This document shows, piece after piece, positions 1 through 21,396 of a stretch of DNA of 21,849 nt. Position 1 is the first letter of the stretch; every line of letters begins with the position of its first letter. The position numbers were made by a program, and so were the translations under genes. The stretch is from the IMG/VR virus record IMGVR_UViG_2693429728_000015, positions 1-21,849 of that record; one strand, 5' to 3'. The DNA comes from a virus (taxonomy: Duplodnaviria > Heunggongvirae > Uroviricota > Caudoviricetes). The notes below the pieces were generated by a model, which was not told the DNA's origin, made no database searches, and worked only from the letters and a program-made list of their open reading frames with translations.

Positions 1-207
1 ACAGTTGGTGTGGCGGCCTCAGTCCGGAACAATTTGAAAACAAGAACCTCGCTTAGGCCTGTGTCCATATTACGTGGGTAGGATCACGCAGGGGTCGGCC
101 CATTTGAGCTTCAGATAGGAACGTTTGAATTCCTTTCACAAAATACATCACATACTGAACGTGAACATTCCCACTTTGATCTTAAGGCCAAAAAGTATGC
201 AGGACTA

Positions 208-1926: not shown

Positions 1927-1927
1927 T

Positions 1928-3676: not shown

Positions 3677-3974
3677 TTATTATATTTTAGGCGTGGTGAT
3701 TTTTTTTCGCCATGCCTATTTTATATTTATCATCACAATGATGTTGTTTATTTTTGTTTAAGTCTTCTAAGCTTCATGCATTCTAATGAGAATAATAATA
3801 GAGTTGTGCTGTATATAAAGCCAGAGTTAGTTAATAACTTTAAATTTAATGCTTCAGGATTTTCACTGAGAAAGTGAAAGGCATAAACTAAGTATACAGC
3901 TAAAGTAGCCGTTCCAATTGTTGGTCCAATATCGCCTTGATCATGAGGTTCAAGGTTTACATTGAACTTGAAGA

Positions 3975-4163
3975 TTAGCCATTCAAATCCCCAAGTAAAA
4001 AAACAACTAATATCATGGCTGCGAATAATTTCGCGATGTTATCTGCTGATGGATTCATCAGAACAGATTGTTTCTGAAAAAATTCACAAAGTGAGAGTCC
4101 GAAAAAAATAAAAAAAAGTGGTCTGGAACTAAATTTTTCAAAAACTTTGAATAGGGTTTCCAT
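3975..4163 (-). CDS. Small hydrophobic protein (two predicted TM helices), hypothetical
   Basis: 62-aa ORF with two hydrophobic stretches ('LFFIFFGLSLCEFF', 'LFAAMILVVFLLG') and GAAGG about 9 nt upstream of the ATG. Lies in the AT-rich spacer between the convergent cargo gene and the integrase. Short, so could be spurious. Confidence 0.3.
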   Translation of the reverse strand: METLFKVFEKFSSRPLFFIFFGLSLCEFFQKQSVLMNPSADNIAKLFAAMILVVFLLGDLNG

Positions 4164-4201
4164 TTTCTTTACCTTCAGGATTATATTAGCTATTCTGATA
4201 C

Positions 4202-5473
4202 TTAGGCTACCAGAGCATTTGATCTTTGAGCTTGAACGTAATCACTCCACCATTGCATCAAACTCTGTCGCTCTATCAGATATTCTGCACGATTGTATGC
4301 TGCGATAATTTCATCTTTTTTCGAGTGGGCAAGCGCTGCCTCAAGAACTTCAGCTCTGAATTTACCAGACTCCTCTGCCGCTGTTCGTGCAATAGAACGC
4401 ATACCGTGAGCTACAAGCTCGCCTCCGAACCCCATTCGGATGATAGCTGCGTTGGCTGTTTGTTCATGCATATGATTAAGAGGCGCTTTTATGCTGGGGA
4501 AAACCCATTCTCTATGCCCACTTATTGATTTCATTAATTCAAGGATGCGCAAAGCTTCTTTACTCAAAGGAACTTTGTGAAGCTTTTTCATTTTCATGAA
4601 ATCAGCAGGAATGTTCCAAATGCTGTTGGTTGTATCAATATCAGACCACCTTGCGCGAACGGCTTCACCCGGACGAACCCATGTCAACAATTGCCATTCA
4701 ATTAGCATACGTGTTTCCAACCGGATTGACGCATTCGTCAAAGATTCCATAAACCTTGGCAATTCGCTTGGGGGAAGGGCAGGCATATTTTGCTTTTTTG
4801 GTTTACTGAATCTTTGACCAAGGTTGTCAGCCGGGTTGAACTCAATAAGTTCTTCAGTAGCTGCCCACCGGAAGATTTCATTCAGACGTGAAATGATACG
4901 GCGTAGAGTTTCCAATACGCCTCGTTGCTCAATAGGATCAAGGTGTTGTTTTAAGAGCTTAGGTCGGATCTCATTGATAGGGACATTACCCAGACCGGGA
5001 AAGACATTTCTCTCTAAGCTGCGCCAGATGTCTGCTGCATGGTCTTGTGAGATACCTGATGTCTTTACCTTCTCATCTAACCATTTCCGCGCTACGGCTT
5101 GGAGAGTGTGCTCAGTAGCACTCTTTAATGCCTTCGCCTTATCGTTGTTATGGATTTGGGGATCAACACCATTTGCCAGAAAGGAGAGATATTCATCACG
5201 TAAGGCTCTGGCTCTTGCAAGGGTAAGGTGAGGATATGTCCCAAGGCTCATTTTGGTTCTTTTCTTGCTCACTGGTACTGCATACCTGAAATACCAATTT
5301 TTCTTGCCTCCTTTCGCCAAAGGAGCGATTCGTAGAATCAGACCATCACCGTCAAACAAGTTGATTTCTTTATCGGCTGGCTTGGTGCTTTTGATTTCAG
5401 TGTCAGTGAGCTTCTTAGCGATTTTTGCCATTTTGGGACCCTCGGTTTTTGGACCCTTCTTAATGGGTCCCAT
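4202..5473 (-). CDS. int: P4-family (IntA/CP4-57-like) tyrosine integrase
   Basis: 423-aa ORF. N-terminus 'MAKIAKKLTDTEIKSTKPADKEINLFDGDGLILRIAPL' is typical of the P4-integrase arm-binding domain; C-terminus has 'LAHSKKDEIIAAYNRAEY' (catalytic-Tyr region). The more likely start is the ATG at 5431 (GAGGG about 9 nt upstream), giving 409 aa. It lies immediately downstream, same strand, of the ssrA 3' fragment. Confidence 0.9.
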   Translation of the reverse strand: MGPIKKGPKTEGPKMAKIAKKLTDTEIKSTKPADKEINLFDGDGLILRIAPLAKGGKKNWYFRYAVPVSKKRTKMSLGTYPHLTLARARALRDEYLSFLANGVDPQIHNNDKAKALKSATEHTLQAVARKWLDEKVKTSGISQDHAADIWRSLERNVFPGLGNVPINEIRPKLLKQHLDPIEQRGVLETLRRIISRLNEIFRWAATEELIEFNPADNLGQRFSKPKKQNMPALPPSELPRFMESLTNASIRLETRMLIEWQLLTWVRPGEAVRARWSDIDTTNSIWNIPADFMKMKKLHKVPLSKEALRILELMKSISGHREWVFPSIKAPLNHMHEQTANAAIIRMGFGGELVAHGMRSIARTAAEESGKFRAEVLEAALAHSKKDEIIAAYNRAEYLIERQSLMQWWSDYVQAQRSNALVA

Positions 5474-5528
5474 TCAGGGTGCCATAACTCGTAGTTCTCA
5501 GCAATTCTCACTGGACGACAATAGACGT

Positions 5529-5560
5529 AAAAAAGCCCGCAGAGCTTGTGCTGTGTGGGC
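5529..5560 (-). terminator. Putative rho-independent terminator between the ssrA fragment and int
   Basis: On the minus strand an imperfect GC-rich hairpin (GCCCACACAG...CTGCGGGC) is followed by TTTTTT (plus-strand A-tract at 5529-5534). Confidence 0.45.
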
Positions 5561-5596
5561 TTAGTAGACTTCATTGAACTTCAAACAACTAAAAAG

Positions 5597-5641
5597 TGGT
5601 GGAGCTGGCGGGAGTTGAACCCGCGTCCGAAATTCCTACAT
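5597..5641 (-). repeat. ssrA: 3'-terminal 45 nt of tmRNA (ssrA): T-arm plus acceptor ending CCA; att-site direct repeat of an ssrA-integrated element
   Basis: Reverse complement reads ATGTAGGAATTTCGGACGCGGGTTCAACTCCCGCCAGCTCCACCA, which I recognise as the 3' end of enterobacterial tmRNA. Sequence at higher coordinates (5642-5800) is AT-rich and unlike the tmRNA body, so this is a partial copy, not the gene. Confidence 0.75.
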
Positions 5642-5767
5642 ACTAATAATATATCTTTAAAATCAAAATATTCTATTATTTATCAATGTATTATGTTTAT
5701 GTGGTGTTAAGGGGTTTATATGGGTTTTAGTTCTCTGCCGCCAAAATGCAGCCAAAAAAATTGAATG

Positions 5768-5795
5768 GTAAAACGCCAGTTCGTTGAACTGGCGA
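5768..5795 (-). terminator. Rho-independent terminator after the ThyX-like gene
   Basis: Perfect 9-bp stem with 3-nt loop (cgccagttc-gtt-gaactggcg, 5775-5795), followed on the minus strand by TTTTACC. It sits 10 nt after the stop of the 5805-6572 CDS. Confidence 0.6.
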
Positions 5796-5804
5796 GATCT
5801 TGTC

Positions 5805-6572
5805 TTATTGTTTTATTATCTTAACGTGCGCCGTTCCTCCATTGACTTTTTCGAAATCTTGGAACAAGGCAGGGGCATCTTGAGTTACAATATCGTAAAG
5901 TTTTTCTGAAACTGTTCTCATTTCATAGTCACCCTGTATTGCTCCTCTCATTTCGAAGAAGTGTCGAATTGCGCGAGCATTTGCTGTGACGATTATTTTT
6001 GTCTCGGTTGCATTAGGCAATATAGAGCGAGAAGCGCTTCTTAGGGCCCGCATTTTTTCTTTTTTGTTCTCATACGATTGGTTTTCACGGATTTTTTTCA
6101 AGGATTGCTTATAAAAATCCAGACTACTTTCAATATGTTGGCACCATGACTTAAACAATTCTGGGTCATTTTTTACTTCTATAGGGGCTACGAATTCAGC
6201 ATCGGATTCATCATGATACTGTTGGGATAACTGGCTATATGAAAAACCAGCTCTATGCCGAACTAGCTGGTGTGTAAATGCACGAGATACCCCAGTAATT
6301 AAAAAGGTCCAGTTCAAATGTTCTAAGACACTTTCATGCCCTTGAATAATTAAATTGTTGATATATTGACTTGTAGTCCGTGGAGACTGCTTATCCTCTC
6401 CAAAAGACATATAACATAGCCTGCCAGCGGCCTCTACCAGAAGCTCAGCTTCGGTCGCCTGCCCTTTGCGAACCCATTGCAATGATGATGTGTTTAAAAA
6501 ATCATCAAAAACATTACTTTCAAATGAAGGGTGTGATATGCATTTTACTGATAAATCAGAGATTTTTATCAT
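5805..6572 (-). CDS. ThyX-like flavin-dependent thymidylate synthase homologue
   Basis: 255-aa ORF with 'GVSRAFTHQLVRHRAGFSYSQLSQQY', matching the ThyX signature (RHR ... SYSQ.SQ) and its surrounding conserved block. GGGAG lies upstream of the ATG. Starts 2 nt after the stop of the upstream Dcd-like gene (operon). AT-rich. Confidence 0.7.
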   Translation of the reverse strand: MIKISDLSVKCISHPSFESNVFDDFLNTSSLQWVRKGQATEAELLVEAAGRLCYMSFGEDKQSPRTTSQYINNLIIQGHESVLEHLNWTFLITGVSRAFTHQLVRHRAGFSYSQLSQQYHDESDAEFVAPIEVKNDPELFKSWCQHIESSLDFYKQSLKKIRENQSYENKKEKMRALRSASRSILPNATETKIIVTANARAIRHFFEMRGAIQGDYEMRTVSEKLYDIVTQDAPALFQDFEKVNGGTAHVKIIKQ

Positions 6573-7386: not shown

Positions 7387-8400
7387 TTATAAATTAGCCA
7401 GAGGGTTTTTTATTACTGCATCTTCAAGATGCTCTGGGGAAAAATGTGCATAAATCATAGTCATTTTTATATCAGAGTGGCCTAAAATATCTCGTAAAAC
7501 CAAAATATTACCACCATTCATCATAAAATGGCTGGCGAATGTATGGCGCAGAACGTGGGTGCATTGGCCCTCTGGTAACTCAATGTCAGCTCGCTTTACT
7601 GCTCGTTCAAAGGCTTTTCTGCAAGGAGTGAATAACTTCCCTCTGTTCTTAGGGAGTTCGTCATACAGATCCTGAGATATCGGCACGGTACGGTTTTTCT
7701 TGCCCTTAGTCTTGGTATAGGTGATCCGGTATTTCGATAACTGATGGCCCTGCAGATTTTCGGCTTCACTCCAGCGCGCGCCGGTGGCCAGGCATATTTT
7801 TGCAATTAAAAGTAGACTGGGGCTTTGAGAATCAGCACAGGCATCCAGCAGACGTTTAATTTCTTCCGGGGTCAGGAACGCCAGTTCACCCTCAGCAATT
7901 TTAAATGTTGGCAGCCCGGCAAGCGGATTGGGGGCTGACCAGTGGCCCAACTTTTTCAGTGTGCCAAAAACAGATGATAGGTTGCGCTGTTCAAGGTTTA
8001 CAGTGCGGGGCTTAACGGGCGACATAAGCGTGCCCTCTTCATTTCGCACTTCACCTTTTAGCCGCGCTTCTCGGTATTTAGTAAAATCACCGGCTGTCAG
8101 CTCTGAGGCGATGGGATCGCCTAGACCATTACAGATAATTCTAAGTTTCGCCATGAGGCGCTTGGGGTCTGCGAGTGTTTGACCATACAGGGAATACCAC
8201 TGCTCAATTAATTCTGATAGGTGTCGCCGATCTTCCTTTTCCCCCAGCCATGGCTTTTTGTTCACTTCTTCCATTGTGAAGCTTTCAAAAGCAATGGCTT
8301 CGCCTTTCGTAGCAAATTGCTTACGCACGCGCTTGCCATTGCGTCCATGGGGATAGCACTCGCACAACCATTTACCGTTTGGCTGTTTTCTGACAGTCAT
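7387..8400 (-). CDS. int: P2/186-family tyrosine integrase
   Basis: 337-aa ORF. N-terminus 'PNGKWLCECYPHGRNGKRVRKQFATKGEAIAFE' is P2-Int-like; C-terminus 'HVLRHTFASHFMMNGGNILVLRDILGHSDIKMTMIYAHF' carries the R-H-R-Y catalytic region. Starts 2 nt after the cI stop. Confidence 0.9.
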   Translation of the reverse strand: MTVRKQPNGKWLCECYPHGRNGKRVRKQFATKGEAIAFESFTMEEVNKKPWLGEKEDRRHLSELIEQWYSLYGQTLADPKRLMAKLRIICNGLGDPIASELTAGDFTKYREARLKGEVRNEEGTLMSPVKPRTVNLEQRNLSSVFGTLKKLGHWSAPNPLAGLPTFKIAEGELAFLTPEEIKRLLDACADSQSPSLLLIAKICLATGARWSEAENLQGHQLSKYRITYTKTKGKKNRTVPISQDLYDELPKNRGKLFTPCRKAFERAVKRADIELPEGQCTHVLRHTFASHFMMNGGNILVLRDILGHSDIKMTMIYAHFSPEHLEDAVIKNPLANL

Positions 8401-8402
8401 GT

Positions 8403-9035
8403 TTAGATACTCTTTATTACTTTGACTGCACGCCCAATAACTTCCACATCATCAGTAGAGCACTCGAAAGACGCTTCATCTTGATTTACTACAATCTTAT
8501 TGCCGGGAATCCGCATGATTTTTGCAACAATAATCATTCCATCAATATTGATAAGCCAGAATCCATTGCTGACCTGTTTAATTGATTTATCGATGAGATA
8601 ACAATTAGTAGGGGTTTCTAAGAACATCAATTCTTCATAATCTGCAGGTAATATGCTGTGGTCTAGGAAAATCTCTTCATCAATACTGAGTTGTCCATTC
8701 TCCAGGGTTCCTTTAGGAATAGCTGGAGTTATGAGTTTGGATAACGGTTTAATTGCTTGTTTGTTCTCATTATGAGAACTTTTCTCAGGCTCAGCTCCTC
8801 CTTTCATGCTTCCCTGTCCTGTAGCTAACCAAAGCAACGAAACACCGGTTTCTAGTGCGCACTGAATTATCCAGTCAGCAGGAAAGCTGTCACGTAACAC
8901 TCTGTTTGCCATAGTGCTTTTTGAGACATTCAGGTGCTCGCTTAATGCCTGCTTAGTTGTGAATCCATAAGCCTCAAGCAGCCTTCCAATAGCTGCCTTA
9001 CCTCCCGTATCGGAACCCATTCTGATGTTTAACAT
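8403..9035 (-). CDS. cI: CI-type immunity repressor (phage 186 CI-like)
   Basis: 210-aa ORF. N-terminal HTH region '...LEAYGF...CALETGVSLLWLATGQG' resembles 186 CI. Divergent from apl/cII and directly upstream of int, as in 186-like phages. Confidence 0.8.
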   Translation of the reverse strand: MLNIRMGSDTGGKAAIGRLLEAYGFTTKQALSEHLNVSKSTMANRVLRDSFPADWIIQCALETGVSLLWLATGQGSMKGGAEPEKSSHNENKQAIKPLSKLITPAIPKGTLENGQLSIDEEIFLDHSILPADYEELMFLETPTNCYLIDKSIKQVSNGFWLINIDGMIIVAKIMRIPGNKIVVNQDEASFECSTDDVEVIGRAVKVIKSI

Positions 9036-9156: not shown

Positions 9157-9399
9157 ATGAGTACTGATATTTCAATTCGTGTACCAAAAGAGATGGCTAC
9201 GCCTGCAGAGTTCGCAGAGTGGGAGGGTATTTCCCGCGGCTCTGTTTACCAAAAAATTCACCATGGTCAACTTGCTAAGTACATGGTCAAGAAAGAAAAA
9301 AACAAAGGCCGCGTAAGCCTGCGTTATCTGATGTACAAAACCGATCAGGTCCGTGAATCCCTCGGTCATTCCAACTTCCGCGTCATTGTTGGTAAGTAA
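9157..9399 (+). CDS. apl: Apl/Cox-like excisionase and transcriptional regulator
   Basis: 80-aa ORF in the first position of the rightward operon, divergent from cI. Basic, HTH-like. Assignment is by position and size. Confidence 0.6.
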   Translation: MSTDISIRVPKEMATPAEFAEWEGISRGSVYQKIHHGQLAKYMVKKEKNKGRVSLRYLMYKTDQVRESLGHSNFRVIVGK

Positions 9400-9431
9400 G
9401 TTCAATTATGGGAACTTTCTAAGGGGGCACC

Positions 9432-9941
9432 ATGTTTGATTACAAGATTTCCAAACATCCGCATTTCGATGAAGCCTGTAGGGCTTTTGCACTGCGCCAC
9501 AACCTGGTGCAACTGGCAGAACGTGCAGGCATGAATGTGCAGATTCTGCGGAACAAGCTGAACCCAGCTCAACCTCATTTATTAACTGCACCAGAAATCT
9601 GGTTGCTTACCGATCTGACTGAAGATTCAACGCTGGTAGATGGTTTTCTGGCTCAGATTCACTGCCTGCCATGTGTACCGATTAATGAGGTGGCAAAAGA
9701 GAAACTGCCACATTACGTCATGAGTGCAACCGCAGAGATCGGGCGTGTCGCGGCAGGTGCGGTTTCTGGCGATGTAAAAACCAGTGCAGGCCGTCGTGAT
9801 GCGATCAGCAGCATTAACTCTGTTACACGACTGATGGCGCTGGCTGCTGTTTCATTGCAGGCCCGTTTACAGGCTAATCCTGCGATGGCGAGTGCGGTTG
9901 ATACCGTGACTGGCCTCGGTGCTTCATTCGGTTTGCTGTGA
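9432..9941 (+). CDS. cII: CII-like lysogeny establishment regulator (phage 186 CII family)
   Basis: 169-aa ORF. '[22 protein letters not shown]...[25 protein letters not shown]' closely matches 186 CII as I recall it. Strong SD (AAGGGGG). Confidence 0.85.
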
Positions 9942-9954
9942 GGTGCTTATGCTG

Positions 9955-10245
9955 ATGAAAGAACCATCATTTGCATCGCTCCTGGTAAAACAAAGTCCGG
10001 CAATGCACTACGGTCACGGCTGGATCATGGGTGAGGATGGTAAACGCTGGCATCCGTGCCGTTCACAAGATGAATTGCTGTCTGAATTGACCACGAGGAA
10101 ACGGAGAAAGTCCAAATGTATGCGGCAGAAAATAAAGTGGTTTATCACTTTCGTTACAGAGGGGAGAATTATTCAGTACCTGAAGATGATTTGCTCTGTT
10201 GCTATCCGTCGTTGTCGGGCGATGGTAGCTACTTTTTCACGCTAA
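9955..10245 (+). CDS. Hypothetical early protein (start and end uncertain)
   Basis: ORF track starts at GTG 9919 inside cII. ATG 9955 has GAGGTG 9 nt upstream. The C-terminal third overlaps the next gene in another frame and looks compositionally odd, so the true product may be shorter. Confidence 0.3.
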   Translation: MKEPSFASLLVKQSPAMHYGHGWIMGEDGKRWHPCRSQDELLSELTTRKRRKSKCMRQKIKWFITFVTEGRIIQYLKMICSVAIRRCRAMVATFSR

Positions 10246-10340
10246 AGGATGGAACCTTTATACGTGGTGAAAAAGTACAAGAAGTGATGCGTATAAAGAC
10301 ATCACCTCTTGAACGTTATCGGCGAAATATTTATCGGTAA
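10116..10340 (+). CDS. Hypothetical early protein
   Basis: 74-aa ORF with GGAGAAAG 5 nt upstream of the ATG. Confidence 0.5.
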   Translation: MYAAENKVVYHFRYRGENYSVPEDDLLCCYPSLSGDGSYFFTLKDGTFIRGEKVQEVMRIKTSPLERYRRNIYR

Positions 10341-10579
10341 CGATCTATCAGTGTCTGTATCAGATGAGTGAATTCTTGTTGTTTAACCGAACCTAAAGGA
10401 AGTTTGTTTAATTCTTCGCGGAGGAGCTCAAAAAATGCTGATTGATTTGCTGAGTCAGTTCGAAATAAGGAGTGGATCAGACCTGAAACAAGAATTCGTT
10501 GAACAGCAACCTCATCGCGAAGACTGGAGATCTCGTTTTCAAGTTGCTCTAAACGCTCTCTTTCAACCGGGTTCAACAT
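10331..10579 (-). CDS. Hypothetical 82-aa protein encoded antisense to the early operon
   Basis: AAGGAA lies 6 nt upstream of the ATG on the minus strand. Convergent with 10116-10340, overlapping it by 10 nt. Confidence 0.5.
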   Translation of the reverse strand: MLNPVERERLEQLENEISSLRDEVAVQRILVSGLIHSLFRTDSANQSAFFELLREELNKLPLGSVKQQEFTHLIQTLIDRYR

Positions 10580-10660
10580 TGATGATTCCTTCTAGCTATC
10601 AATATGTTGGTAATGGATCATATCAAAAATTTTTTAGTAGATGTGTTGTGGGATGCATAA

Positions 10661-11002
10661 ATGGCTATTGAAGGCGCTGCGGCGACTGTTCCATTAAGTC
10701 CCGGTGAACGCCTGAATGGACTTAATCACATTGCGGAGTTAAGGGCGAAAGTATTTGGCCTGAATATTGAGTCAGAGCTTGAGCGGTTTATTAAAGATAT
10801 GCGTGATCCACGGGATATCAATAACGAACAAAATAAACGGGCACTGGCTGCCATATTCTTTATGGCAAAAATTCCAGCTGAACGTCATAGCATCAGCATT
10901 AATGAGCTGACCACTGACGAAAAGCGGGAGTTGATTAAAGCAATGAATCATTTTCGTGCAGTGGTGAGCTTATTTCCCAGACGGCTAACCATGCCGAATT
11001 AA
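10661..11002 (+). CDS. Hypothetical early protein
   Basis: 113-aa ORF with ATG start. No motif recognised. Confidence 0.5.
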   Translation: MAIEGAAATVPLSPGERLNGLNHIAELRAKVFGLNIESELERFIKDMRDPRDINNEQNKRALAAIFFMAKIPAERHSISINELTTDEKRELIKAMNHFRAVVSLFPRRLTMPN

Positions 11003-11069
11003 CCAACTAATGAAATTAATGGCGTAAACCCGCCGGGCATCCCTTTATCTAAATTCAGGAGAATTGATT

Positions 11070-11303
11070 ATGCGTAATATTGAAATCCTCACGACTAAAA
11101 CCGGACCGGATGACGCAGGGCTTAATATTTTACTGACAGAGGCTCGTCTGGAAGAACGTCGGGCAAGGGCTGAAGCAATGGCAGCTCGCCTTGATAGCCT
11201 GGCGTGTCATATCACATCCCGCCAGCTAAACCACGTCGAAGCGGCAGAACTGCTGCGTGTAACTGCTGAAGCAATCCAGAACGAAGCGCAGGAGATCCAC
11301 TAA
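11070..11303 (+). CDS. Hypothetical early protein
   Basis: ORF track starts at TTG 11064. ATG 11070 has CAGGAGAA upstream. The stop overlaps the next gene's ATG (coupled). Confidence 0.55.
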   Translation: MRNIEILTTKTGPDDAGLNILLTEARLEERRARAEAMAARLDSLACHITSRQLNHVEAAELLRVTAEAIQNEAQEIH

Positions 11304-11530
11304 TGGCTGATGCAATGGATCTCGTACAGCAGCGCGTTGAAGAAGAACGCCAGCGCCATATTCGTGCTGTCCGTGCCAAAACACCGGGCGTGTCTCGCGT
11401 GCTTTGTATTGAATGTGAAGCGCCAATTCCGCCAGCACGACGCCGCGCCATTCCGGGAGTGCAGCTTTGCATTACCTGCCAGGAAATCGCAGAGCTGAAA
11501 GGCAAACATTACAACGGAGGTGCTGTATGA
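11303..11530 (+). CDS. TraR/DksA-family C4 zinc-finger protein (P2 orf82-like)
   Basis: 75-aa ORF with two Cys pairs, 'CIECEAPIP' and 'CITCQE', and AGGAGA upstream. Confidence 0.7.
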
Positions 11531-11829
11531 CAAGGGCAGTGCGTATCCATCAATTAAAAATTGCACCTAAGTATTTCAACGCTGTGGTTGCAGGTCAAAA
11601 GACGGCTGAACTTCGTAAAGACGATCGTGGCTATAAAGTTGGTGATGTTCTTTCTCTTTGCGAATGGAAGCATGGCGTATTTACGGGTAGGGAATGGGCC
11701 GCTGTTATCTCTCATGTGCTTCCGGTTAATGACGTCATGGCAGTTTCAGAACAATGGGTGATGCTATCAATTCGCCCATTAACCCCATTAGAAGCTTTAG
11801 GATATGTTATTGCAGGAGGTGCTGTATGA
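11527..11829 (+). CDS. ASCH/DUF3850-like (PUA-fold) protein
   Basis: ORF track starts at 11467 inside the previous gene. ATG 11527 gives a 100-aa protein, '[40 protein letters not shown]...', which resembles ASCH/DUF3850. Immediately upstream of the methyltransferase. Confidence 0.55.
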
Positions 11830-12683
11830 GTACCATCCTGAAATGGGCGGGTAATAAAACTGCCATTATGTCCGAACTGAAAAAACATCTTCCTGCTGGC
11901 CCGCGACTGGTTGAACCTTTCGCGGGTTCCTGTGCTGTGATGATGGAGACGGATTACCCCAGCTATCTGGTTGCGGATATTAATCCTGATTTAATCAACC
12001 TCTATAAAAAGGTTGCTGCTGATTGCGAGGCGTTTATATCTCGTGCCAGAGCTTTATTTGAGGAAGCAAACAGGGAGTTGGCTTATTACAACATAAGGCA
12101 GGAGTTTAATTACTCCACTGAAATTACTGATTTCATGAAAGCGGTATATTTCCTGTATCTCAATCGTCATGGTTACCGTGGGTTATGTCGTTATAACAAG
12201 AGCGGGCATTTCAACATTCCATACGGTAATTATAAAAATCCGTATTTCCCTGAAAAAGAAATTCGCGCATTTGCAGAGAAAGCCCAGCGAGCAACGTTTA
12301 TCTGCGCCAGCTTTGATGAAACGCTGGCGATGCTGCAGGTGGGGGATGTGGTGTATTGCGATCCGCCTTATGACGGTACGTTTTCCGGCTATCACACTGA
12401 TGGTTTCACTGAAGATGACCAGTATCACCTGGCATCCGTTCTTGAACATCGGTCATCAGAAGGACATCCGGTCATTGTTTCTAACAGTGACACATCCCTG
12501 ATCCGTTCGCTGTATCGAAATTTTACTCACCACTACATCAAGGCAAAACGCAGCATCGGTGTAGCAGCTGGTGAGAGTAAATCTGCAACAGAAATCATCG
12601 CTGTTTCCGGGCCGCGCTGCTGGGTGGGATTTGATCCTTCGCGTGGCGTGGATAGTTCTGCCGTGTACGGAGTGCGTGCATGA
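11826..12683 (+). CDS. dam: Dam-family N6-adenine DNA methyltransferase
   Basis: ORF track starts at 11754. ATG 11826 has GGAGGTG upstream. N-terminal '[20 protein letters not shown]...EPFAGSCAV' is the AdoMet-binding region; 'CDPPYDG' is the catalytic DPPY motif. Confidence 0.85.
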
Positions 12684-15094
12684 GCCATGCTGATATGAAC
12701 AACTGCAGCGGCTTTAACGAGGTCGCCGCAGCATTCTCATGGAACAGCCCGAAAAAGGCCATTAACCCTTATCTGGACCCGGCGGAAGTTGCGCCGGTTT
12801 CTGCGCTTTCAAACCTGATCACTCTGTACGCTACTGATAACGAGCAGGAACAACTGCGCCGCGAGGCACTGAGTGATCAGGTTTGGGAGCGTTATTTCTT
12901 TAATGAATCCCGTGATCCTGTCCAGCGCGAAATGGAGCAGGATAAGCTCATTAGCCGGGCAAAGTTGGCGCATGAGCAGCAGCGTTTTAACCCGGACATG
13001 GTCATTCTGGCAGACGTTAACGCCCAGCCTTCCCATATCAGCAGGCCGCTGATGCAACGTATTGAATACTTCAGCAGCCTTGGCAGGCCAAAGGCTTATT
13101 CCCGCTATTTGCGTGAGACGATTAAGCCATGTCTGGAACGGCTGGAGCATGTACGCGACAGTCAGCTATCCACTTCTTTTCGCTTTATGGCAAGCCATGA
13201 AGGGCTGGACGGCCTGCTGATTCTGCCTGAAATGAGTCAGGATCAGGTGAAACGCCTGTCCACCCTTGTTGCTGCGCATATGAGCATGTGCCTTGATGCA
13301 GCTTGTGGCGATTTGTATGCCACCGATGACGTTAAGCCAGAAGAAATCCGCAAGACATGGGAAAAGGTGGCAGCAGAAACCCTGCGACTGGATGTCATAC
13401 CGCCTGCGTTTGAGCAACTCCGCCGGAAAAGAAACCGCCGCAAACCTGTGCCCTATGAACTCATTCCGGGTTCGCTGGCGCGTATGCTGTGCGCCGACTG
13501 GTGGTATCGGAAATTATGGAAGATGCGTTGCGAATGGCGGGAAGAGCAGTTGCGTGCTGTCAGCCTGGTCAGCAAAAAAGCATCTCCCTATGTCAGCTAT
13601 GAAGCCGTGATGCATAAACGTGAGCAGCGCCGTAAGTCGCTGGAGTTTTTCCGTTCTCATGAACTGGTGAACGAAGACGGCGACACGCTGAACATGGAGG
13701 ATGTGGTAAACGCCAGCAGCAGCAACCCGGCGCATCGCCGCAATGAGATGATGGCCTGTGTTAAAGGCCTGGAACTTATCGCGGAAATGCGTGGTGACTG
13801 CGCCGTTTTCTACACCATCACCTGTCCGTCACGTTTCCATTCCACGCTAAATAACGGCAGGCCAAACCCGACCTGGACCAACGCGACAGTAAGACAAAGC
13901 AGCGATTATCTGGTCGGCATGTTTGCTGCATTTCGTAAGGCTATGCACAAAGCCGGGTTGCGCTGGTATGGCGTGCGGGTGGCTGAGCCACATCATGACG
14001 GTACAGTTCACTGGCACCTGTTGTGTTTTATGCGCAAAAAAGACCGCCGCGCCATCACTGCATTACTGCGTAAGTTTGCCATCCGTGAAGACCGCGAGGA
14101 GCTGGGCAATAACACGGGGCCGCGCTTTAAGTCTGAGTTGATTAACCCGCGCAAAGGAACGCCGACAAGCTACATCGCGAAATATATCAGTAAGAACATT
14201 GACGGGCGTGGTCTGGCTGGCGAGATCAGCAAGGAAACGGGTAAATCCCTGCGTGATAACGCTGAATACGTGAATGCCTGGGCGTCTCTGCATCGTGTTC
14301 AGCAATTCCGCTTCTTTGGTATTCCGGGGCGTCAGGCTTATCGTGAACTGCGATTGCTGGCTGGTCAGGCGGCAAGGCAGCAGGGTGACAAAAAAGCAGG
14401 TGCGCCGGTACTGGATAACCCACGCCTTGATGCCATCCTGGCTGCTGCTGATGCTGGCTGTTTTGCGACCTACATCATGAAGCAGGGCGGCGTGCTGGTT
14501 CCCCGCAAATATCACCTTATCAGAACAGCTTATGAAATTAACGAAGAGCCGACCGCCTATGGCGATCACGGTATTCGTATTTATGGCATCTGGTCACCCA
14601 TTGCAGAGGGCAAGATCTGCACTCATGCAGTGAAGTGGAAAATGGTTCGTAAGGCCGTTGACGTTCAGGAGGCGGCAGCCGAACAGGGCGCTTGCGCCCC
14701 TTGGACTCGTGGCAATAACTGTCCCCTTGCTGAAAATTTGAACCAACAAGGGAAAGACAAATCAGCTGATGGGGATACCAGAACGGACATTACCCACATG
14801 GATGACAAGGAGTTGCACGATTACCTGCACAGTATGAACAAAAAAGAGCGCCGGGAACTGGCTGCAAGGTTACGCCTGGTGAAACCGAAACGGCGTAGAG
14901 ACTACAAACAGCGAATTACAGACCATCAACGACAGCAGCTCGTCTATGAACTGAAGTCCAGAGGATTTGATGGCAGCGAGAAAGAGGTCGATTTACTCCT
15001 TCGCGGCGGCAGTATTCCGTCAGGAGCAGGCCTGCGTGTCTTCTATCGGAACCAGCGTTTGCAGGAAGATGATAAGTGGCGGAACCTGTATTAA
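12680..15094 (+). CDS. A: P2/186 gene A-type replication initiation endonuclease
   Basis: 804-aa ORF, GC-rich, in the position after the early genes. Size and conserved blocks (for example '[11 protein letters not shown]') are consistent with the rolling-circle initiator A. Start overlaps the dam stop. Confidence 0.8.
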
Positions 15095-15163
15095 TTACGC
15101 GGGTTAACAATTCGTGCTCTTAATAATACCAGGCATATCAGGCTGATGAACGTAAAAAAACGT

Positions 15164-15206
15164 TTTACATCAGTAAGATTATCATATACTGTAAATATAA
15201 ACAGTG
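15164..15206 (+). promoter_or_regulatory. SOS-regulated promoter: TTTACA-17-TACTGT with a LexA box overlapping the -10
   Basis: LexA box TACTGTAAATATAAACAGTG at 15187-15206 (CTGT-N8-ACAG). -35 TTTACA at 15164-15169. It lies upstream of the small ORF and the DinI-like gene. Confidence 0.6.
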
Positions 15207-15247
15207 GTTATCTATACAGTATTGTTTGCGGTGTCATAGGAGGAAAG

Positions 15248-15436
15248 ATGCAGGACTATTTTTTGGAGTCTTTGAAGCTCCAGCGCATTGATTTTTTTCT
15301 TAAGCTTGTAGCGGCTAGTGAGTGTAGTGATGAAGAGAAGGGGCTGGCCCTGCAGTGGGTTTCTGAATTGACTGATGAACTCATGGCAAAAATCAGAAGC
15401 CACGAATACAACCGCTCAATGGATGTCATCAGCTGA
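15248..15436 (+). CDS. Small acidic protein, possibly the N-terminal antirepressor part of a Tum-like module
   Basis: ORF track starts at 15146. ATG 15248 has the strong SD AGGAGGAAAG upstream and gives 62 aa. Downstream of the LexA box and upstream of the DinI-like gene. Confidence 0.45.
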   Translation: MQDYFLESLKLQRIDFFLKLVAASECSDEEKGLALQWVSELTDELMAKIRSHEYNRSMDVIS

Positions 15437-15446
15437 GGTGACTTTT

Positions 15447-15680
15447 ATGCGCATTGAAATAATGATCGATAAAGAGCAGAAGATTAGCCAGTCTACCCTG
15501 GACGCTCTGGAGTCCGAGCTTTACCGCAACCTGCAACCCATCTATCCCAAGACCGCTATCCGCATCCGTAAAGGGTCGGCAAACGGCGTTGAGCTGAGTG
15601 GCTTAAAGCTTGATGAAGACAAAAAGCGGGTGATGGAAATTATGCAACAGGTTTGGGAAGACGACAGCTGGCTGCACTAA
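15447..15680 (+). CDS. DinI-family protein
   Basis: ATG 15447 with GAGGTG 6 nt upstream. 77-aa 'MRIEIMIDKEQ...ALESELYRNLQ...VMEIMQQVWEDDSWLH' resembles E. coli DinI. The phage 186 Tum antirepressor has a DinI-like C-terminal part. Confidence 0.7.
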   Translation: MRIEIMIDKEQKISQSTLDALESELYRNLQPIYPKTAIRIRKGSANGVELSGLKLDEDKKRVMEIMQQVWEDDSWLH

Positions 15681-15798
15681 GGAACGTTCCTGATGTAAGA
15701 ACTTGAATCTGACGTCAGCAAGGTTGAACAACGAGAGTAGCGAGGCGTTAGCCATGGGTAAAAAAGACAGTAATCACCAGATTATTTATCGGGGCTAG

Positions 15799-16014
15799 GT
15801 GCTGGAACGTTTAACCCTTGGCGACTGGGTCTTCTTTCAACGCCCAAAGGAGTGTGGCGGAGGTTTTTGGTTGGGCCGCATCTATGAAGACTGCTTCTGG
15901 CTTGAGCTGGAATTCCCCGTTTCGCTATATGACGGCCTGGGGTTTTTGATGGAAGTCACTAGGGTAGAGCAGAGAAGTGATGAGGTTGACGCGAATTATC
16001 CCCTGTTTGATTAA
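15799..16014 (+). CDS. Hypothetical protein (GTG start, weak)
   Basis: 71-aa ORF with GTG start and no clear SD. May be a remnant. Confidence 0.25.
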   Translation: MLERLTLGDWVFFQRPKECGGGFWLGRIYEDCFWLELEFPVSLYDGLGFLMEVTRVEQRSDEVDANYPLFD

Positions 16015-16033
16015 AAATGTATTAGCTTATAAT
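16006..16033 (+). promoter_or_regulatory. Near-consensus sigma70 promoter (TTGATT-16-TATAAT) upstream of the membrane-protein gene
   Basis: -35 TTGATT at 16006-16011 and -10 TATAAT at 16028-16033, about 30 nt upstream of ATG 16063. Confidence 0.5.
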
Positions 16034-16062
16034 GGAATACTATTTTTGCAGGTGGGGGCGCA

Positions 16063-16674
16063 ATGGATTTAGTCTTTAAAGTTCTGGCTTCGTTGGGTGG
16101 GGTGTCTTTTGTTGCATCTGGCATATTTGTTTGGATCGGGAAAGTTTATTTAGAAAGATATAAGTCGCGGCTAAACAAAGATATTGCTGAATTTCAATCA
16201 CAACTGAGTGCAACTAATGAAAGAATAAAGGCTAAGTTAGACAATTCTGTTTATGTAACGAAAGCGTATTTTGATAAGGAGTTATCAGCATATAGTCTCA
16301 TTTGGAATTCGATGTTTGAAACCAGAGAAAGCGTGCTTAAGCTGAGGCCTGCGCTGGATCATGTTGACCCCAACGAACCATTTGAAGAGAGAAAATTTAG
16401 AAGGTTGAAAGTTTTTTCTGATGCATTTAACACTTTTGTTACAAGTGTTGAATCTAACAAACCGTTCATCTCACCAGAGGTTTATATAATCTTGGACCGT
16501 TTCCGGAAGGAATGCCTTTCAGAGTCAATATCGTTTAAGCATAGCGATCCAGAATTTGACGGGCAAAATTATTGGAAAGAGGCGGAGTTGAACCATACAA
16601 CCATCATCAAGCTTTTTGATGAGACGTGTGATGCAATTCGAGACAGGATGCACACATTAACTGTGGTTACGTAG
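16063..16674 (+). CDS. Membrane-anchored protein (single N-terminal TM helix), unknown function
   Basis: 203-aa ORF. Residues about 5-26 ('FKVLASLGGVSFVASGIFVWIG') are hydrophobic. GGTGGGGG upstream of the ATG. AT-rich. Confidence 0.65.
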   Translation: MDLVFKVLASLGGVSFVASGIFVWIGKVYLERYKSRLNKDIAEFQSQLSATNERIKAKLDNSVYVTKAYFDKELSAYSLIWNSMFETRESVLKLRPALDHVDPNEPFEERKFRRLKVFSDAFNTFVTSVESNKPFISPEVYIILDRFRKECLSESISFKHSDPEFDGQNYWKEAELNHTTIIKLFDETCDAIRDRMHTLTVVT

Positions 16675-16766
16675 GTTTCCAAAAAGTCTCGATGCCCGCT
16701 TTGGAGATTGTGCATGTCTATGCCGCATGAATCCGCATGATCGTTTGAGGATCGTTTTAGCTGAGG

Positions 16767-16792
16767 CCCGCCAGGAGTGGCGGGATTTTGCT
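16767..16792 (+). terminator. Hairpin plus T-rich tract (possible terminator or attenuator) between the membrane-protein and KAP genes
   Basis: CCCGCCA-ggag-TGGCGGG (16767-16784) followed by ATTTTGCTT, inside a GC-rich spacer that contrasts with the AT-rich flanking genes. Confidence 0.35.
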
Positions 16793-16918
16793 TATGTCAT
16801 GCAGGCGCATGAAAACCGCTACATAAAGCGGGCAGGCGTGGCGGGGATACGAGCGCGCGCTCATTACTTTTATAATTCTAGGGTTATAATACGGGGCTGT
16901 CTTTCTAGGAGAAAACAC

Positions 16919-18571
16919 ATGTCCTTAGAGTTTATCAAAGAACAGTTGTCAGATTTTATCTCATCTACAGAACCAGAAGTAATGGCTATACAGGGTGAAT
17001 GGGGAATTGGTAAAACCTATACTTGGAATACGTTCCTAAAAGATAATAAAGATAAGGTTGCATTTAATAGATATAGTTATGTCTCTCTTTTTGGTATAAA
17101 TTCACTAGATTCTTTAAAGTATTCTATTTTTGAGAATGCAATTACAAAGGAATATATTGGAAATAAACCTGATTTGGAGACAGCAACAACAAACGCAAGT
17201 GGACTTTTTGAATCATTTTCTCGAAAAGCAGCAGGTTTGTTAAAAGAAGTTCCTGTTGTAAAAAACTTCTCTACGACACTTGAAGCAATGTCATTTCTGA
17301 CCGTTTCTAAAATGATTGTAGTAATAGATGACTTAGAAAGGCGTGGCAAAAATTTAGATGTTAAAGATGTTTTAGGGCTAGTATCTCTATTAAAAGAGCA
17401 GAAGGATTGTAAGGTGGTTCTATTGCTTAACAATGGCACAGCTAGTATGGAGGATTATTCTACTTATAAAGAAAAGGTCATTGATAGAGATATCACTTAC
17501 AATCCAACACCAGAAGAATGCGCAGATATAGCCTATAAAGGTGATTCTCATGTTTATAACTTGTTAAGTAAATATTCCATTTCTTTAGGTATCAAGAATA
17601 TTCGAATCTTAAAAAAGATAGAACGTTTTTTCGTGTCCTTAATACCAAATATTATAGGTGATGTTGAGACAATTTCAAATGAAGTTGCGCATTCATTAAC
17701 TCTGTATTGTTGGAGCCATTACGGATTTTCTCCAGAGGGAGATGTGCCATCACTAGAATATATTAGGGGAGTGAGGAATATATATACTTATAATGACAAG
17801 GAAGAAGGCCATGAGAAAATCTGGCTTAATACCTTGCTTAAATATGGATATAGAAAAACGAATGATCTTGATGAGGTTCTTATTGATATGGTTAGATATG
17901 GCTATCTTGATAAGAGCAGTTTCCAAAGACAAATAAGCCTAAGGAATGAGGAGATTACGCGTGATAATAAACGAGGTTCCTTATCTGAGGCATGGCAGTT
18001 CTTTCATAATTCATTTGATGACAATCAAAATCAGGTTGTTGACAAGCTATATCAAGCGGTGGTTGATGGGATGAAGTATGTGACTCCAAGTGATTTAGAT
18101 AATGTTGTCGGACTATATAGGGATTTCGGAGAGAATGCTAAGGCGAGTGAATTGATTGAACAGTTTATTAATTATGGTAACGATGCTCTAAAGGAATATG
18201 TTCAATCTATTTATGTGAATGTTCATCCCGTAAGAGATACTGAGTTGTTGTCAAAAATTCAAGCCTATTCTAAGATTATAAATATTGATGGTTCAATATA
18301 TGATGTTCTTAAGAAATTATCAGGTCAGAATGGTTGGTCTGATAGACATGAGGAAATATTGGATGCTGCTTCAGTAGATGACTACTATCAATTATTTAAA
18401 AATGTCATTCTTGATGGTGGTGATTCAATAATAGCTACGGCGCTTAAATTCGGAAATTTTAGTAATGGTTCTGATAGAATGAATCGTATAGGGAAAAAGG
18501 CAAGGGATGCCTTGATAAGAATTGGAGATGAATCGGCGATTAATAAAATGCGTGTAAGGCGATTTTTGTGA
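16919..18571 (+). CDS. KAP-family P-loop NTPase
   Basis: ORF track starts at 16727. ATG 16919 is preferred because AGGAGAAAA lies upstream and two TATAAT boxes lie at 16871-16890. Walker A 'QGEWGIGKTYTW' (GxWGxGK[ST], KAP-type); Walker B 'MIVVIDDLERRGK'. No TM helix seen within it. AT-rich. Confidence 0.75.
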   Translation: MSLEFIKEQLSDFISSTEPEVMAIQGEWGIGKTYTWNTFLKDNKDKVAFNRYSYVSLFGINSLDSLKYSIFENAITKEYIGNKPDLETATTNASGLFESFSRKAAGLLKEVPVVKNFSTTLEAMSFLTVSKMIVVIDDLERRGKNLDVKDVLGLVSLLKEQKDCKVVLLLNNGTASMEDYSTYKEKVIDRDITYNPTPEECADIAYKGDSHVYNLLSKYSISLGIKNIRILKKIERFFVSLIPNIIGDVETISNEVAHSLTLYCWSHYGFSPEGDVPSLEYIRGVRNIYTYNDKEEGHEKIWLNTLLKYGYRKTNDLDEVLIDMVRYGYLDKSSFQRQISLRNEEITRDNKRGSLSEAWQFFHNSFDDNQNQVVDKLYQAVVDGMKYVTPSDLDNVVGLYRDFGENAKASELIEQFINYGNDALKEYVQSIYVNVHPVRDTELLSKIQAYSKIINIDGSIYDVLKKLSGQNGWSDRHEEILDAASVDDYYQLFKNVILDGGDSIIATALKFGNFSNGSDRMNRIGKKARDALIRIGDESAINKMRVRRFL

Positions 18572-18578
18572 TTTTTAT

Positions 18579-18600
18579 AGGGGTGATTAACCCCTTTTTA
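18579..18600. terminator. Bidirectional rho-independent terminator between the convergent KAP and Q genes
   Basis: AGGGGT-gatta-ACCCCT hairpin (18579-18595) flanked by a T-tract (18596-18599) and, on the other side, an A/T tract. Confidence 0.6.
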
Positions 18601-18601
18601 T

Positions 18602-19630
18602 CTAATTTAATGAGTAATCATTAAATGCTATGATTTTTTCATTTAGCCAAGTATTAATTTCTATAAGCCTTTTTTGTAACGGAATTAATTCATTTCGGAC
18701 AAAGACTTTACTAGCCTTTTCCACATCCCCAAACCCCCCAACATTATTCGGCATTATCCCCATCATTTGCGGCGGCACGCGGTGTGCCGCCATCATGTCG
18801 TCCCGGCTCACGTTCTTGATATTCAAAAACTCATCCTTCGCTGCGACCTCTGACAACGGGATAATCTGAAGCCCGTCCTTTTTGCCGTTAGGCGAGTACA
18901 TAAACAGGTTGCGGAAGTTGCCCGGACCTTTGGCGCTTTTCATCGCGTTGCGGAGGTTGTTCACATCCTCTTGGTTTTGCGCAGCATCGGTCATATACAT
19001 GATGAAGCCTGCATGGCTGCCGTTAATGTAATACTTACGGCGGAACAACGTGGCGGACTCGTTGAGCAGAGCTGACGGAATGGCAGAAAGATAACCGGGC
19101 AGGCCGTAGATCTCCTGGTTGATATCCGGTTCCATCAGATGAAAGATGCTGCCTTTCGTGAACTGATACGGCTGCGTAGTCATGCCGTATTGCACAAACC
19201 AGTAGGTATCCAGGTCTAACCCGCGTCGGGTGTATTTTGCCAGCGCAGGTTCAAGGGCGATAACTTCACCGAAGCGGTTCGTGCGTTTCTCCAGGTAAGC
19301 GTTACCAAATACCAGATAGTCCTGCACAAAACGTGAAAAAGCCTGCTGGCTGAGAAGCGGGTGAGGGATGTAGGTACTGGTCAGAATGTTGCATTTCACC
19401 GCAATTGGTGAACTGTGATGCACGGCAGCGCGGAAGGTTCGCGCCAGTCCGTCAAAACTCACTGGCGGCTCATACCAGCGATCTGTCTGTACGCATTCTA
19501 CATAGTCCAGCAGTTCGCGGCGGTCCAGAACAGGAACGGGATCGCCAAAGCTGAATGCTTCGGCTGAAGTCTGGCTTTTGTGCTGAATCTGGTTCGTCGA
19601 CACAGCGCGGTTCTTCTTACTCTTTCCCAT
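18602..19630 (-). CDS. Q: P2 gpQ-type portal protein
   Basis: ORF track starts at TTG 19633; ATG at 19630 is preferred and overlaps the P stop by 1 nt. 'VLDRRELLDYVECVQTDRWYEPPVSFDGLARTFRAAVHHSSP...GPGNFRNLFMYSPNGKKDGLQIIPLSEVAAKDEF' matches P2 Q as I recall it. Confidence 0.85.
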   Translation of the reverse strand: MGKSKKNRAVSTNQIQHKSQTSAEAFSFGDPVPVLDRRELLDYVECVQTDRWYEPPVSFDGLARTFRAAVHHSSPIAVKCNILTSTYIPHPLLSQQAFSRFVQDYLVFGNAYLEKRTNRFGEVIALEPALAKYTRRGLDLDTYWFVQYGMTTQPYQFTKGSIFHLMEPDINQEIYGLPGYLSAIPSALLNESATLFRRKYYINGSHAGFIMYMTDAAQNQEDVNNLRNAMKSAKGPGNFRNLFMYSPNGKKDGLQIIPLSEVAAKDEFLNIKNVSRDDMMAAHRVPPQMMGIMPNNVGGFGDVEKASKVFVRNELIPLQKRLIEINTWLNEKIIAFNDYSLN

Positions 19631-21396
19631 CAAAAAATCTCCACAATATTGCTGGTATTGGCGGACTCGCCCTGCAGCGGTTCGTTAAACAGTGCGTGCA
19701 TGGTTGCCCAGGCCAGATCGGCATGGCTGGCTTCTTCGCTGCGGCTGGCTTCATAGGTCGGGCGGTTGCCGCTGGCGGTGGTGGCGCGACGGATTGCCAT
19801 AAATGACTGCGCTATGTCGGTGTGTCCGGCGTCAAACTCCAGACGGCGGTGACTGATAATGTCGTAGGCCTTGAGTACCAGGGCATTTTTAACGTTGGGG
19901 TTGTAGACAAACTCCCGGACGGCAGGAAAAAACGCTTTCACGTTCTCGTAAACCCCGTGACCGACGCCGGTTGAGTCGATACCGATGTATGTCACGTTGT
20001 ACTGTTCAGTCAGTTTTTTGATGGCGTCAGCCTGGGCGCGGAAGTCCATCCCGCGCCACTGGTGACGCTCAAGAATGCGGAACTTACCGCCCGGCACGGC
20101 TGGCGGTGCCACCACCACGCATCCGGCGCTGTCGCCGTTCTGCGTACCTTTTGCCGGGTCATAACCGATCCACACTTCGCGCCAGCCAAACGGGCGCAGC
20201 GCCAGTGCATGAAAGTCGGTCCAGACTTCCCAGCTGTCCACCATGCACGCCTGTAGTTCGCTGAGCGGGAACACGGACGCGAGATCGTCCACAAACTCGC
20301 ACATCAGCAGGTTCTGGTATTCGTCCGGGCTGTATTCCATGCGCAACTGGTCAAGGTCGAACAGGTTACAGCCACTGCGCACCGCATCTTCCACGGTGAC
20401 TATCTGGCGGTATTGCCCGTCAGCGCACAGCAGGCCGGGGGCCAGATTGCTGTGGGACAGATCAATGTCCACCTTGTCGGCTTTGTTGCGTCCACGGTTG
20501 AACAGCGCACCGGACCAGAACGGATAAGCACTGTGGGTCAGGCTGGATGGTGTGGAAAAATAGGTCTGCCGCCATTTCTTGTGAATAGCCATACCGGAAG
20601 CCACTTTGCGTAGCTCCTGAAATTTCGGTATCCAGAAATATTCATCCAGATACAGGTTGCCGTGATAACTCTGGGCCGTGCGGGCATTGGTGCCGAGGAA
20701 GTAAAGCGTGGCCCCGTTAGGAAGCACCATCGGATCGCCTTTCAGTTCCACATCCACTTCTTTGGCGAAGTCGATGATGTACTGCTTAAAGACGTGGGCC
20801 TGTGCCTTACTGGCGGAAAGGAAAATCTGGTTACGTCCGGTAAGCAGGGCGTCAATCAGGGCTTCACGGGCAAAGTAAAAGGTCGCGCCGATCTGGCGTG
20901 ACTTCAGCAGGTTGCGGATGCGGTTGGTTTTTCCGGCTTCCCACCAGTGGCGCTGGTAGTTGAACATGGAGGAATGGAAGATTTCTTCCAGCTTCTCAAT
21001 CTGTTCATCGGTGAAGACATTCTTTTCCGGCTGACGGCGCGGGCCTTTGTTGCGGTTGGCGACGTTAGGGTTTAAGTCAGCTTCGTTGCCGCCATTGTTA
21101 AACTTGCCGATCCGCGCGTGGCGCTCAGACTGGCGCGCCAGCAGGTCAATCTCTTTGAAATCTTTCCCTTCTTTGTGCTCCTTCATAATGAGCTGGCAGT
21201 AGCGTGCGGCGGTGGTGAGCTGCATCTGATCCAGCGGCCCATAGTCACCCCACTTGTCGCGTTTTTTCCAGCTGTGAACGGTTGCAACTTTCTCGCCCAG
21301 CATTTCAGCAATGCGGGCGACGCGGTATCCCTGAAAGTACAGCAGCATGGCCTGCCGACGGGGATCGAGATCTGCGGGTGTCAGTGTGGTGTTCAT
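19630..21396 (-). CDS. P: P2 gpP-type terminase ATPase (large) subunit
   Basis: 588-aa ORF, GC-rich. Size and position (upstream of Q, divergent from O) match P2 P. Confidence 0.85.
   Translation of the reverse strand: MNTTLTPADLDPRRQAMLLYFQGYRVARIAEMLGEKVATVHSWKKRDKWGDYGPLDQMQLTTAARYCQLIMKEHKEGKDFKEIDLLARQSERHARIGKFNNGGNEADLNPNVANRNKGPRRQPEKNVFTDEQIEKLEEIFHSSMFNYQRHWWEAGKTNRIRNLLKSRQIGATFYFAREALIDALLTGRNQIFLSASKAQAHVFKQYIIDFAKEVDVELKGDPMVLPNGATLYFLGTNARTAQSYHGNLYLDEYFWIPKFQELRKVASGMAIHKKWRQTYFSTPSSLTHSAYPFWSGALFNRGRNKADKVDIDLSHSNLAPGLLCADGQYRQIVTVEDAVRSGCNLFDLDQLRMEYSPDEYQNLLMCEFVDDLASVFPLSELQACMVDSWEVWTDFHALALRPFGWREVWIGYDPAKGTQNGDSAGCVVVAPPAVPGGKFRILERHQWRGMDFRAQADAIKKLTEQYNVTYIGIDSTGVGHGVYENVKAFFPAVREFVYNPNVKNALVLKAYDIISHRRLEFDAGHTDIAQSFMAIRRATTASGNRPTYEASRSEEASHADLAWATMHALFNEPLQGESANTSNIVEIF

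Follow-up and report, generated by a model that had tools for sequence, protein, structure and literature searches.

Here, we describe a displaced 3' end of the tmRNA gene ssrA that lies between two integrases in a 21,849-nt stretch of caudoviricete DNA, called the window below. The fragment comprises the last 45 nt of ssrA, ends in CCA and occupies positions 5597..5641 on the minus strand, where it was identified by exact sequence match. Read from 5641 to 5597 it is ATGTAGGAATTTCGGACGCGGGTTCAACTCCCGCCAGCTCCACCA, which occurs a single time in the window with 0 mismatches and was matched in 0/100 dinucleotide-preserving shuffles. The annotated ssrA 3' ends of Escherichia coli K-12, 504237 and TUM12355 are identical to it (45/45 nt), and identity with ssrA does not extend upstream of the first base of the 45-mer (..TTAGT/ATGTAGG in the fragment versus ..CGAGG/ATGTAGG in the gene), the DNA upstream being ...TATTAGT in the fragment and ...ACCGAGG in the gene. 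ARAGORN called no tmRNA gene in the window and Rfam no tmRNA at its gathering score, as expected because only a 45-nt fragment is present; a permissive Rfam scan returned a partial tmRNA match of 46 bits, from the 3' end only. Positions 5597-5641 are thus an ssrA fragment only, with no further part of the gene in the window, as the initial annotation had claimed and as its proposed alignment to intact ssrA confirmed in K-12, 504237 and TUM12355. A promoter-like site at 5699-5670(-) was considered as a driver of the fragment and dropped, as shuffles yield one such site by chance. A total of 5,762 copies of the 45-mer, with a maximum of four per genome, were found across 5,426 complete E. coli genomes; extra copies are uncommon yet far from rare.

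Behind the CCA of the fragment, positions 5529-5596 hold a 34-nt spacer and a hairpin/U-run terminator supplied by the neighbouring island (5529..5562, minus strand; terminator scan, fold z = -2.87). Genomes that lack the prophage carry the same terminator, with 100% identity, directly behind intact ssrA, and the hairpin is the ssrA terminator predicted there. The Rfam model of IsrM, a Salmonella island-encoded sRNA (Rfam), also matches here (5529-5606, minus strand; 53 bits versus a gathering score of 376). We rejected an IsrM gene at this position, since only the two model ends match, with 253 nt absent, and these represent the shared fragment/terminator module. The partial match suggests that IsrM of Salmonella may be located ahead of a P4-type integrase, in a spacer/terminator module homologous to this one.

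The terminator is followed by a P4-type tyrosine integrase of 409 aa (4202..5431, minus strand; longest ORF to 5473), as identified by Pfam, NCBIfam and sequence identities. It carries the Pfam domains Arm-DNA-bind_3, Phage_int_M and Phage_integrase, scores 440.6 bits against NCBIfam PRK09692 (cutoff 434), and is 48% identical to K-12 IntA of CP4-57 over the full length and 34% identical to P4 Int. The gene is intact as an ORF, co-oriented with the ssrA fragment and downstream of it, as is intA behind ssrA in K-12, which agrees with the P4-family ssrA-int arrangement proposed in the initial annotation; a P4-type integrase that adjoins the tDNA end in the same orientation is also what characterizes CP4-57-like islands. 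The integrase heads an island remnant of ~5.5 kb that is ended by IS3. From integrase to IS3 the only ORFs are a small one of 138 aa in relatives (3748..4164, minus strand), a Response_reg_2 protein of 588 aa (1910-3676, plus strand; Pfam) and an overlapping gene for a HEF_HK/HATPase_c protein of 572 aa (208-1926, plus strand; Pfam). The small ORF is frameshifted here, as seen by comparing its translation with that of 504237: one gap in the 99.9% alignment leaves only the C-terminal ~90 codons in frame. An AlpA/Vis-type excisionase and the P4 genes for alpha primase, sid, delta and psu are absent among these ORFs. The HEF_HK/Response_reg_2 pair gave no match in PADLOC and is found beside the same integrase also in 504237, EC5502 and AMSHJX01. 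The Pfam families HEF_HK and Response_reg_2 have been described as two-component-like and as linked to restriction-modification systems and paraMORC ATPases (bioRxiv 10.1101/2020.08.26.268516).

The window starts inside the terminal 86 nt of the IS3 that truncates the island (1..86; 100% match to the IS3 end in TUM12355, with IS3 annotated there in relatives). The neighbour of this IS3 in relatives is a 5'-truncated ygaQ pseudogene, which means that the island has lost its distal end, along with the adjoining chromosomal genes (those from ypjA to ileY in K-12). A distal copy of the ssrA end bounding the island (21 nt, up to 4 errors including indels) was found neither in the window (1-5596) nor in 504237, EC5502 and the draft contigs L007 and L009, and native chromosomal flank bounding it was likewise absent from window positions 1-5596 and from the downstream DNA in 504237, EC5502, L007 and L009. 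These searches used exact, 3-mismatch and 4-error patterns, and as a positive control they recovered psaA and its flank in K-12; psaA is the distal pseudo-ssrA of CP4-57 in that strain. A weak att-like match at 11213-11233 lies inside phage early genes and on the other strand and was taken as chance. The island is a truncated, integrase-bearing and probably immobile remnant and not a complete mobile unit. Its distal end was lost to the IS3-associated truncation, and it most likely is fixed in place.

On the other side of the fragment lies the int-proximal end of a P2-family prophage, as the initial annotation had recognized, here of Fels-2/RE-2010 type. An A+T-rich phage arm of the att site (5642..5804, minus strand) abuts the 45-mer and is constant across prophages with the same cargo. 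It is followed by genes for ThyX (255 aa; 5805-6572, minus strand) and for a dUTPase-fold, dCTP-deaminase-like (dcd-like) protein (261 aa; 6575-7360, minus strand), both assigned with Pfam, NCBIfam and PHROGs. Next come the P2-family (Fels-2/RE-2010-type) integrase (7387..8400, minus strand; Pfam Int_N and Phage_integrase), which shares 95% amino acid identity with RE-2010 Int, and a 186/Fels-2-type CI repressor (8403..9035, minus strand; Pfam Phage_CI_repr and Phage_CI_C). The rest of the visible prophage (9157..21396) was assigned by DNA identity to RE-2010 and by a gene order as in RE-2010 and in E. coli prophage annotation. It includes replication protein A at the end of the plus-strand early operon (12680-15094, plus strand), a 203-aa protein of phrog_26391 (within 16063-18571, plus strand), a KAP-family P-loop NTPase of 614 aa (16727-18571, plus strand), the portal (18602-19633, minus strand; NCBIfam) and the large terminase (19630-21396, minus strand). 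Starting from att, the order is hence 45-mer, thyX, dcd-like gene, int, cI, early genes, A, accessory genes, portal and terminase, with thyX, the dcd-like gene, int and cI all on the minus strand and reading toward the 45-mer. Of the deposited phages, Salmonella phage RE-2010 (Felsduovirus) matches best, with ~93% DNA identity over 67% of 16.2 kb. P2/186 synteny and identity to the type phages, as read from the part of the prophage whose tail/head half lies outside the window, place it with Felsduovirus-type phages, and so does the ssrA 3' end within attP, which is apparent from the repeats of RE-2010 and the internal 45-mer of phage Cartapus. The integrases of prophage and island have no sequence similarity to each other (E = 2).

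The slot between int and att varies in content among related elements: EC5502 has an annotated 'anti-phage dCTP deaminase' there, Cartapus a RES-like gene of 401 aa, RE-2010 a hypothetical protein, likewise of 401 aa, and 504237 two hypothetical genes. Homology of the dcd-like protein to the 'anti-phage dCTP deaminase' of EC5502 was rejected (E = 0.2), and PADLOC gave no match for the dcd-like/thyX pair. Among P2-like phages, a minor defence hotspot has been described at this slot (PMC13586616). The dcd-like/thyX pair is a candidate nucleotide-pool defence or lysogenic-conversion module. P2-like phages classically carry variable accessory genes in the interval from the replication gene to the portal. 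In relatives this interval holds other genes (AAA_13 ATPase, AIPR), and the KAP-family NTPase found there in the window is a PADLOC candidate (PDC-S49, E = 4e-27).

Neither intact ssrA nor the second repeat falls within the window, and both were examined in closely related complete genomes only; the closest matches to the window are 99.7-99.9% identical over parts of it, and none of the deposited genomes is identical to it. Identity between E. coli 504237 and the window is 99.9% over positions 1-5645 and ~85-94% in the phage DNA. The genes of this strain are arranged as smpB, intact ssrA, small ORF, ogr, D, tail/head genes, terminase, portal, A, cI and int, followed by two cargo genes, the 45-mer, the same P4-type int and island, IS3, truncated ygaQ and glaH. 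TUM12355 carries the same dcd-like/thyX cargo up to the 45-mer, which there is followed by a different P4-integrase island. In both genomes, which share 95-99.9% identical DNA with the window, the far-end 45-mer lies inside intact ssrA, and the two 45-mers form direct repeats that are 35,415 bp apart in 504237 and 15,983 bp apart in TUM12355. The prophage of TUM12355 (L001 4404-19996) is heavily degraded, with truncated tape measure, portal and replication genes, and has kept both 45-mers; from its sequence, this is best read as decay in place. A fragment identical over 45/45 nt to the 3' end of the target gene, a tyrosine integrase inside the interval (Int 7387-8400(-)) and, outside the window here and as seen in 504237 and TUM12355, an intact gene of the same orientation at the far end together represent the signature used by Islander. 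The search for further copies of the 45-mer that the initial annotation had suggested therefore delimits one element of the two: a second identical copy was found at the far end of the prophage in 504237 and TUM12355, and none for the island. Its proposal of a direct-repeat att shared by two elements, each with its own integrase and cargo, is supported, with the refinement that the two are not equivalent: the prophage has two repeats in related genomes, and the island is without a distal repeat.

Related phages carry the repeat as well. The prophage record of RE-2010 has annotated 84-bp direct att repeats, both starting ATGTAGGAATTTCGG..., that is with ATGTAGG and thus at the same first base as the 45-mer. 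In the linear complete genome record of Escherichia phage Cartapus (Elveevirus) the 45-mer is internal, with cI, int and cargo ahead of it and a small ORF and then ogr behind it, which is the arrangement expected of attP. In the lysogens 504237 and TUM12355, intact ssrA is followed by AATAAA.CAAGGGGTTACGTGAA.GCGTAGCCCCTTTTT, a phage-type terminator as in RE-2010. An exact-protein look-up with ThyX was used to find the same prophage end elsewhere. The same cargo and an identical phage arm up to the 45-mer abut three contexts, namely the island of the window, another P4-integrase island and the native flank, which beyond the 45-mer reads ATCATGATTGG; ATCATGATTGGACGG... and is found after psaA in K-12. 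These junctions suggest that the flank behind the fragment is whatever followed ssrA before the phage arrived.

The corresponding site without the prophage is common. We assembled a synthetic empty site of 393 nt, in which 196 nt of intact ssrA are joined to the 197 nt located directly behind the window's fragment, and found it at a coverage of at least 80% in 978/5,426 complete E. coli genomes, several of which match with 100% over all 393 nt. The island junction in these 978 genomes consists of ssrA, the terminator and the start of int. AMSHJX01 encodes smpB, ssrA, the same integrase protein, cargo, IS3 and truncated ygaQ, and lacks the prophage. Presence of the IS3-truncated island directly behind ssrA in prophage-free genomes indicates that the island is older than the phage insertion, and the occurrence of the prophage without the island and of the island without the prophage indicates that the two elements are independent. 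On these genome comparisons, the order of arrival is read as island first and phage second. As a general rule, the newest element in such arrays lies closest to the intact gene, and the order found here agrees with it.

We propose that the phage inserted at a pre-existing ssrA-island junction and that the 45-mer is the original ssrA tail, an explanation to which we assign a probability of roughly nine in ten. In the ancestor, ssrA would have been followed directly by an island that supplied the terminator (5529-5562) and a P4-type integrase, as CP4-57 does in K-12. A Fels-2/RE-2010-like phage would have brought its own 45-nt copy in attP, located between the int-side cargo and ogr. Recombination of attP with the ssrA 3' end by the phage Int would then have left the phage copy to complete the functional gene, and would have displaced the old 45-nt copy together with the island to the far, int-proximal end of a prophage of ~35 kb. 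The 45-mer of the window would accordingly be both the far att site of the prophage (attR in ssrA orientation) and the old ssrA-side junction of the island, and we hold this double assignment with the same high confidence. With the two copies identical in sequence, the crossover has no assignable position within the 45 nt. For the same reason, excision would restore wild-type ssrA: the phage Int, together with a Cox/Apl-type excisionase as annotated in related phages, should excise the prophage by recombining attR with the intact ssrA end, and the attP of the excised circle would read phage arm, 45-mer and then AAATAAATCAAGGGG. Repeat identity and boundaries, gene content, the attP copy, occupied and empty sites in relatives and the intact integrase ORFs were all observed directly; from these we infer the recombination itself, present excision competence and an intact ssrA beyond the right end of the window, on the basis of what is established for tyrosine-integrase elements at tRNA and tmRNA genes (the Islander principle, PMC4383910; P2-like integrases, PMC3448106).

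The best surviving alternative is the reverse order, with the phage arriving before the P4-integrase island and the displaced 45-mer, not the functional gene, then serving as the insertion site of the island. Such an insertion is conceivable, as the fragment keeps the extreme ssrA 3' end, which is the part used by CP4-57-type integrases (psaA of K-12 covers only ~15 nt). However, the same island with the same integrase and IS3 truncation lies behind intact ssrA without the prophage, at 100% junction identity, the same prophage is also found without any island, and an island without a distal end could not have integrated recently. A single phage insertion into a common island-bearing background accounts for all of these states, and we consider the reverse order improbable. 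Less probable still is a single composite element, in which the P4-type int region would be cargo of the prophage, or the prophage cargo of the island, and the 45-mer an internal relic. Prophage and island are indeed adjacent in several genomes, yet phage records end or circularise at the 45-mer without the island, each of the two elements is found alone, and their integrases share no sequence similarity. A chance or non-att match, such as a tRNA-like pseudogene or an artefact of assembly, would fit the absence of gene calls by ARAGORN and gathering-threshold Rfam and is refuted by the 45/45 nt match, 0/100 shuffles and the same junction in many independent assemblies.

It is intriguing to ask whether the two elements interact. 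The intact island integrase, which has no distal site of its own, might use the two ssrA-3' copies that flank the prophage to delete or exchange it, or excision and packaging of the prophage might carry island cargo. Such cross-talk is a speculative idea that we regard as very doubtful. If true, the 45-mer would be no passive scar but would function in the hand-off from a helper-type phage to a P4-type remnant or the reverse.

Under the proposed insertion, the fragment would define with base precision where an apparently complete-type P2-family prophage ends on its int-proximal side and where an older island starts. With this boundary, the thyX and dcd-like genes count as phage genes and the kinase-like/receiver-like pair as island genes, which is mainly of value for annotation. 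In addition, the order of acquisition becomes readable, and wild-type ssrA is predicted after excision of the phage, unlike for CP4-57. Current understanding of integration at the tmRNA gene is unchanged.

The prophage resembles the Fels-2/SopEPhi/RE-2010 (ELPhiS) group (Salmonella, Peduoviridae, Felsduovirus), members of which have the same order of att, cargo, int, cI, apl/cox and cII, followed further along by A and then by portal and terminase. The att identity block of RE-2010 starts at the same ssrA base. In contrast to the Salmonella Fels-2 group, the closest relatives of the window are all E. coli genomes, and compared with RE-2010 the cargo differs both between int and att (dcd-like and thyX) and between A and portal (203-aa protein and KAP NTPase). 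In RE-2010 the far copy is flanked by DNA that matches the terminator arm of the phage itself, which extends the repeat to 84 bp, whereas identity in the window ends at the CCA, since island DNA follows it. Both Fels-2 and SopEPhi have ssrA as their integration site (PMC3448106) and are listed with an unaltered 3' end (PMC10107115 Table 1).

The island resembles CP4-57 of K-12 in the co-oriented P4-type integrase right after the ssrA 3' end and in the element-supplied terminator. It differs from CP4-57 in its size (~5.5 kb versus 22 kb) and its cargo, the HEF_HK/Response_reg_2 pair. The ORFs of the window include no alpA-type excisionase gene, and the island ends at IS3, with neither a psaA-like distal copy nor native flank. 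Excision of CP4-57 in K-12 deletes one T and inactivates tmRNA (PMC10107115).

As a whole, the locus resembles the tandem tDNA arrays described with Islander, in which the intact gene is followed by an element, a displaced 3' fragment and the next element, with the newest one nearest the gene. Each member of such an array has its own fragment and integrase; the second member here has its own integrase, the intact 409-aa P4-type protein, and is not bounded by a distal tDNA fragment of its own. Islander recorded 125 arrays of at least two islands, and the tmRNA gene was the most enriched target (PMC4383910). In Salmonella LT2, Fels-2 with a P2 integrase and Stm27X with a P4 integrase are both listed at ssrA (PMC10107115 Table 1, citing Williams 2003). 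Because both elements are at one single-copy gene, they presumably lie in tandem, with the same pairing of integrases as here. The arrangement of the window is thus ordinary and already known in kind, as tandem elements at ssrA have long been known.
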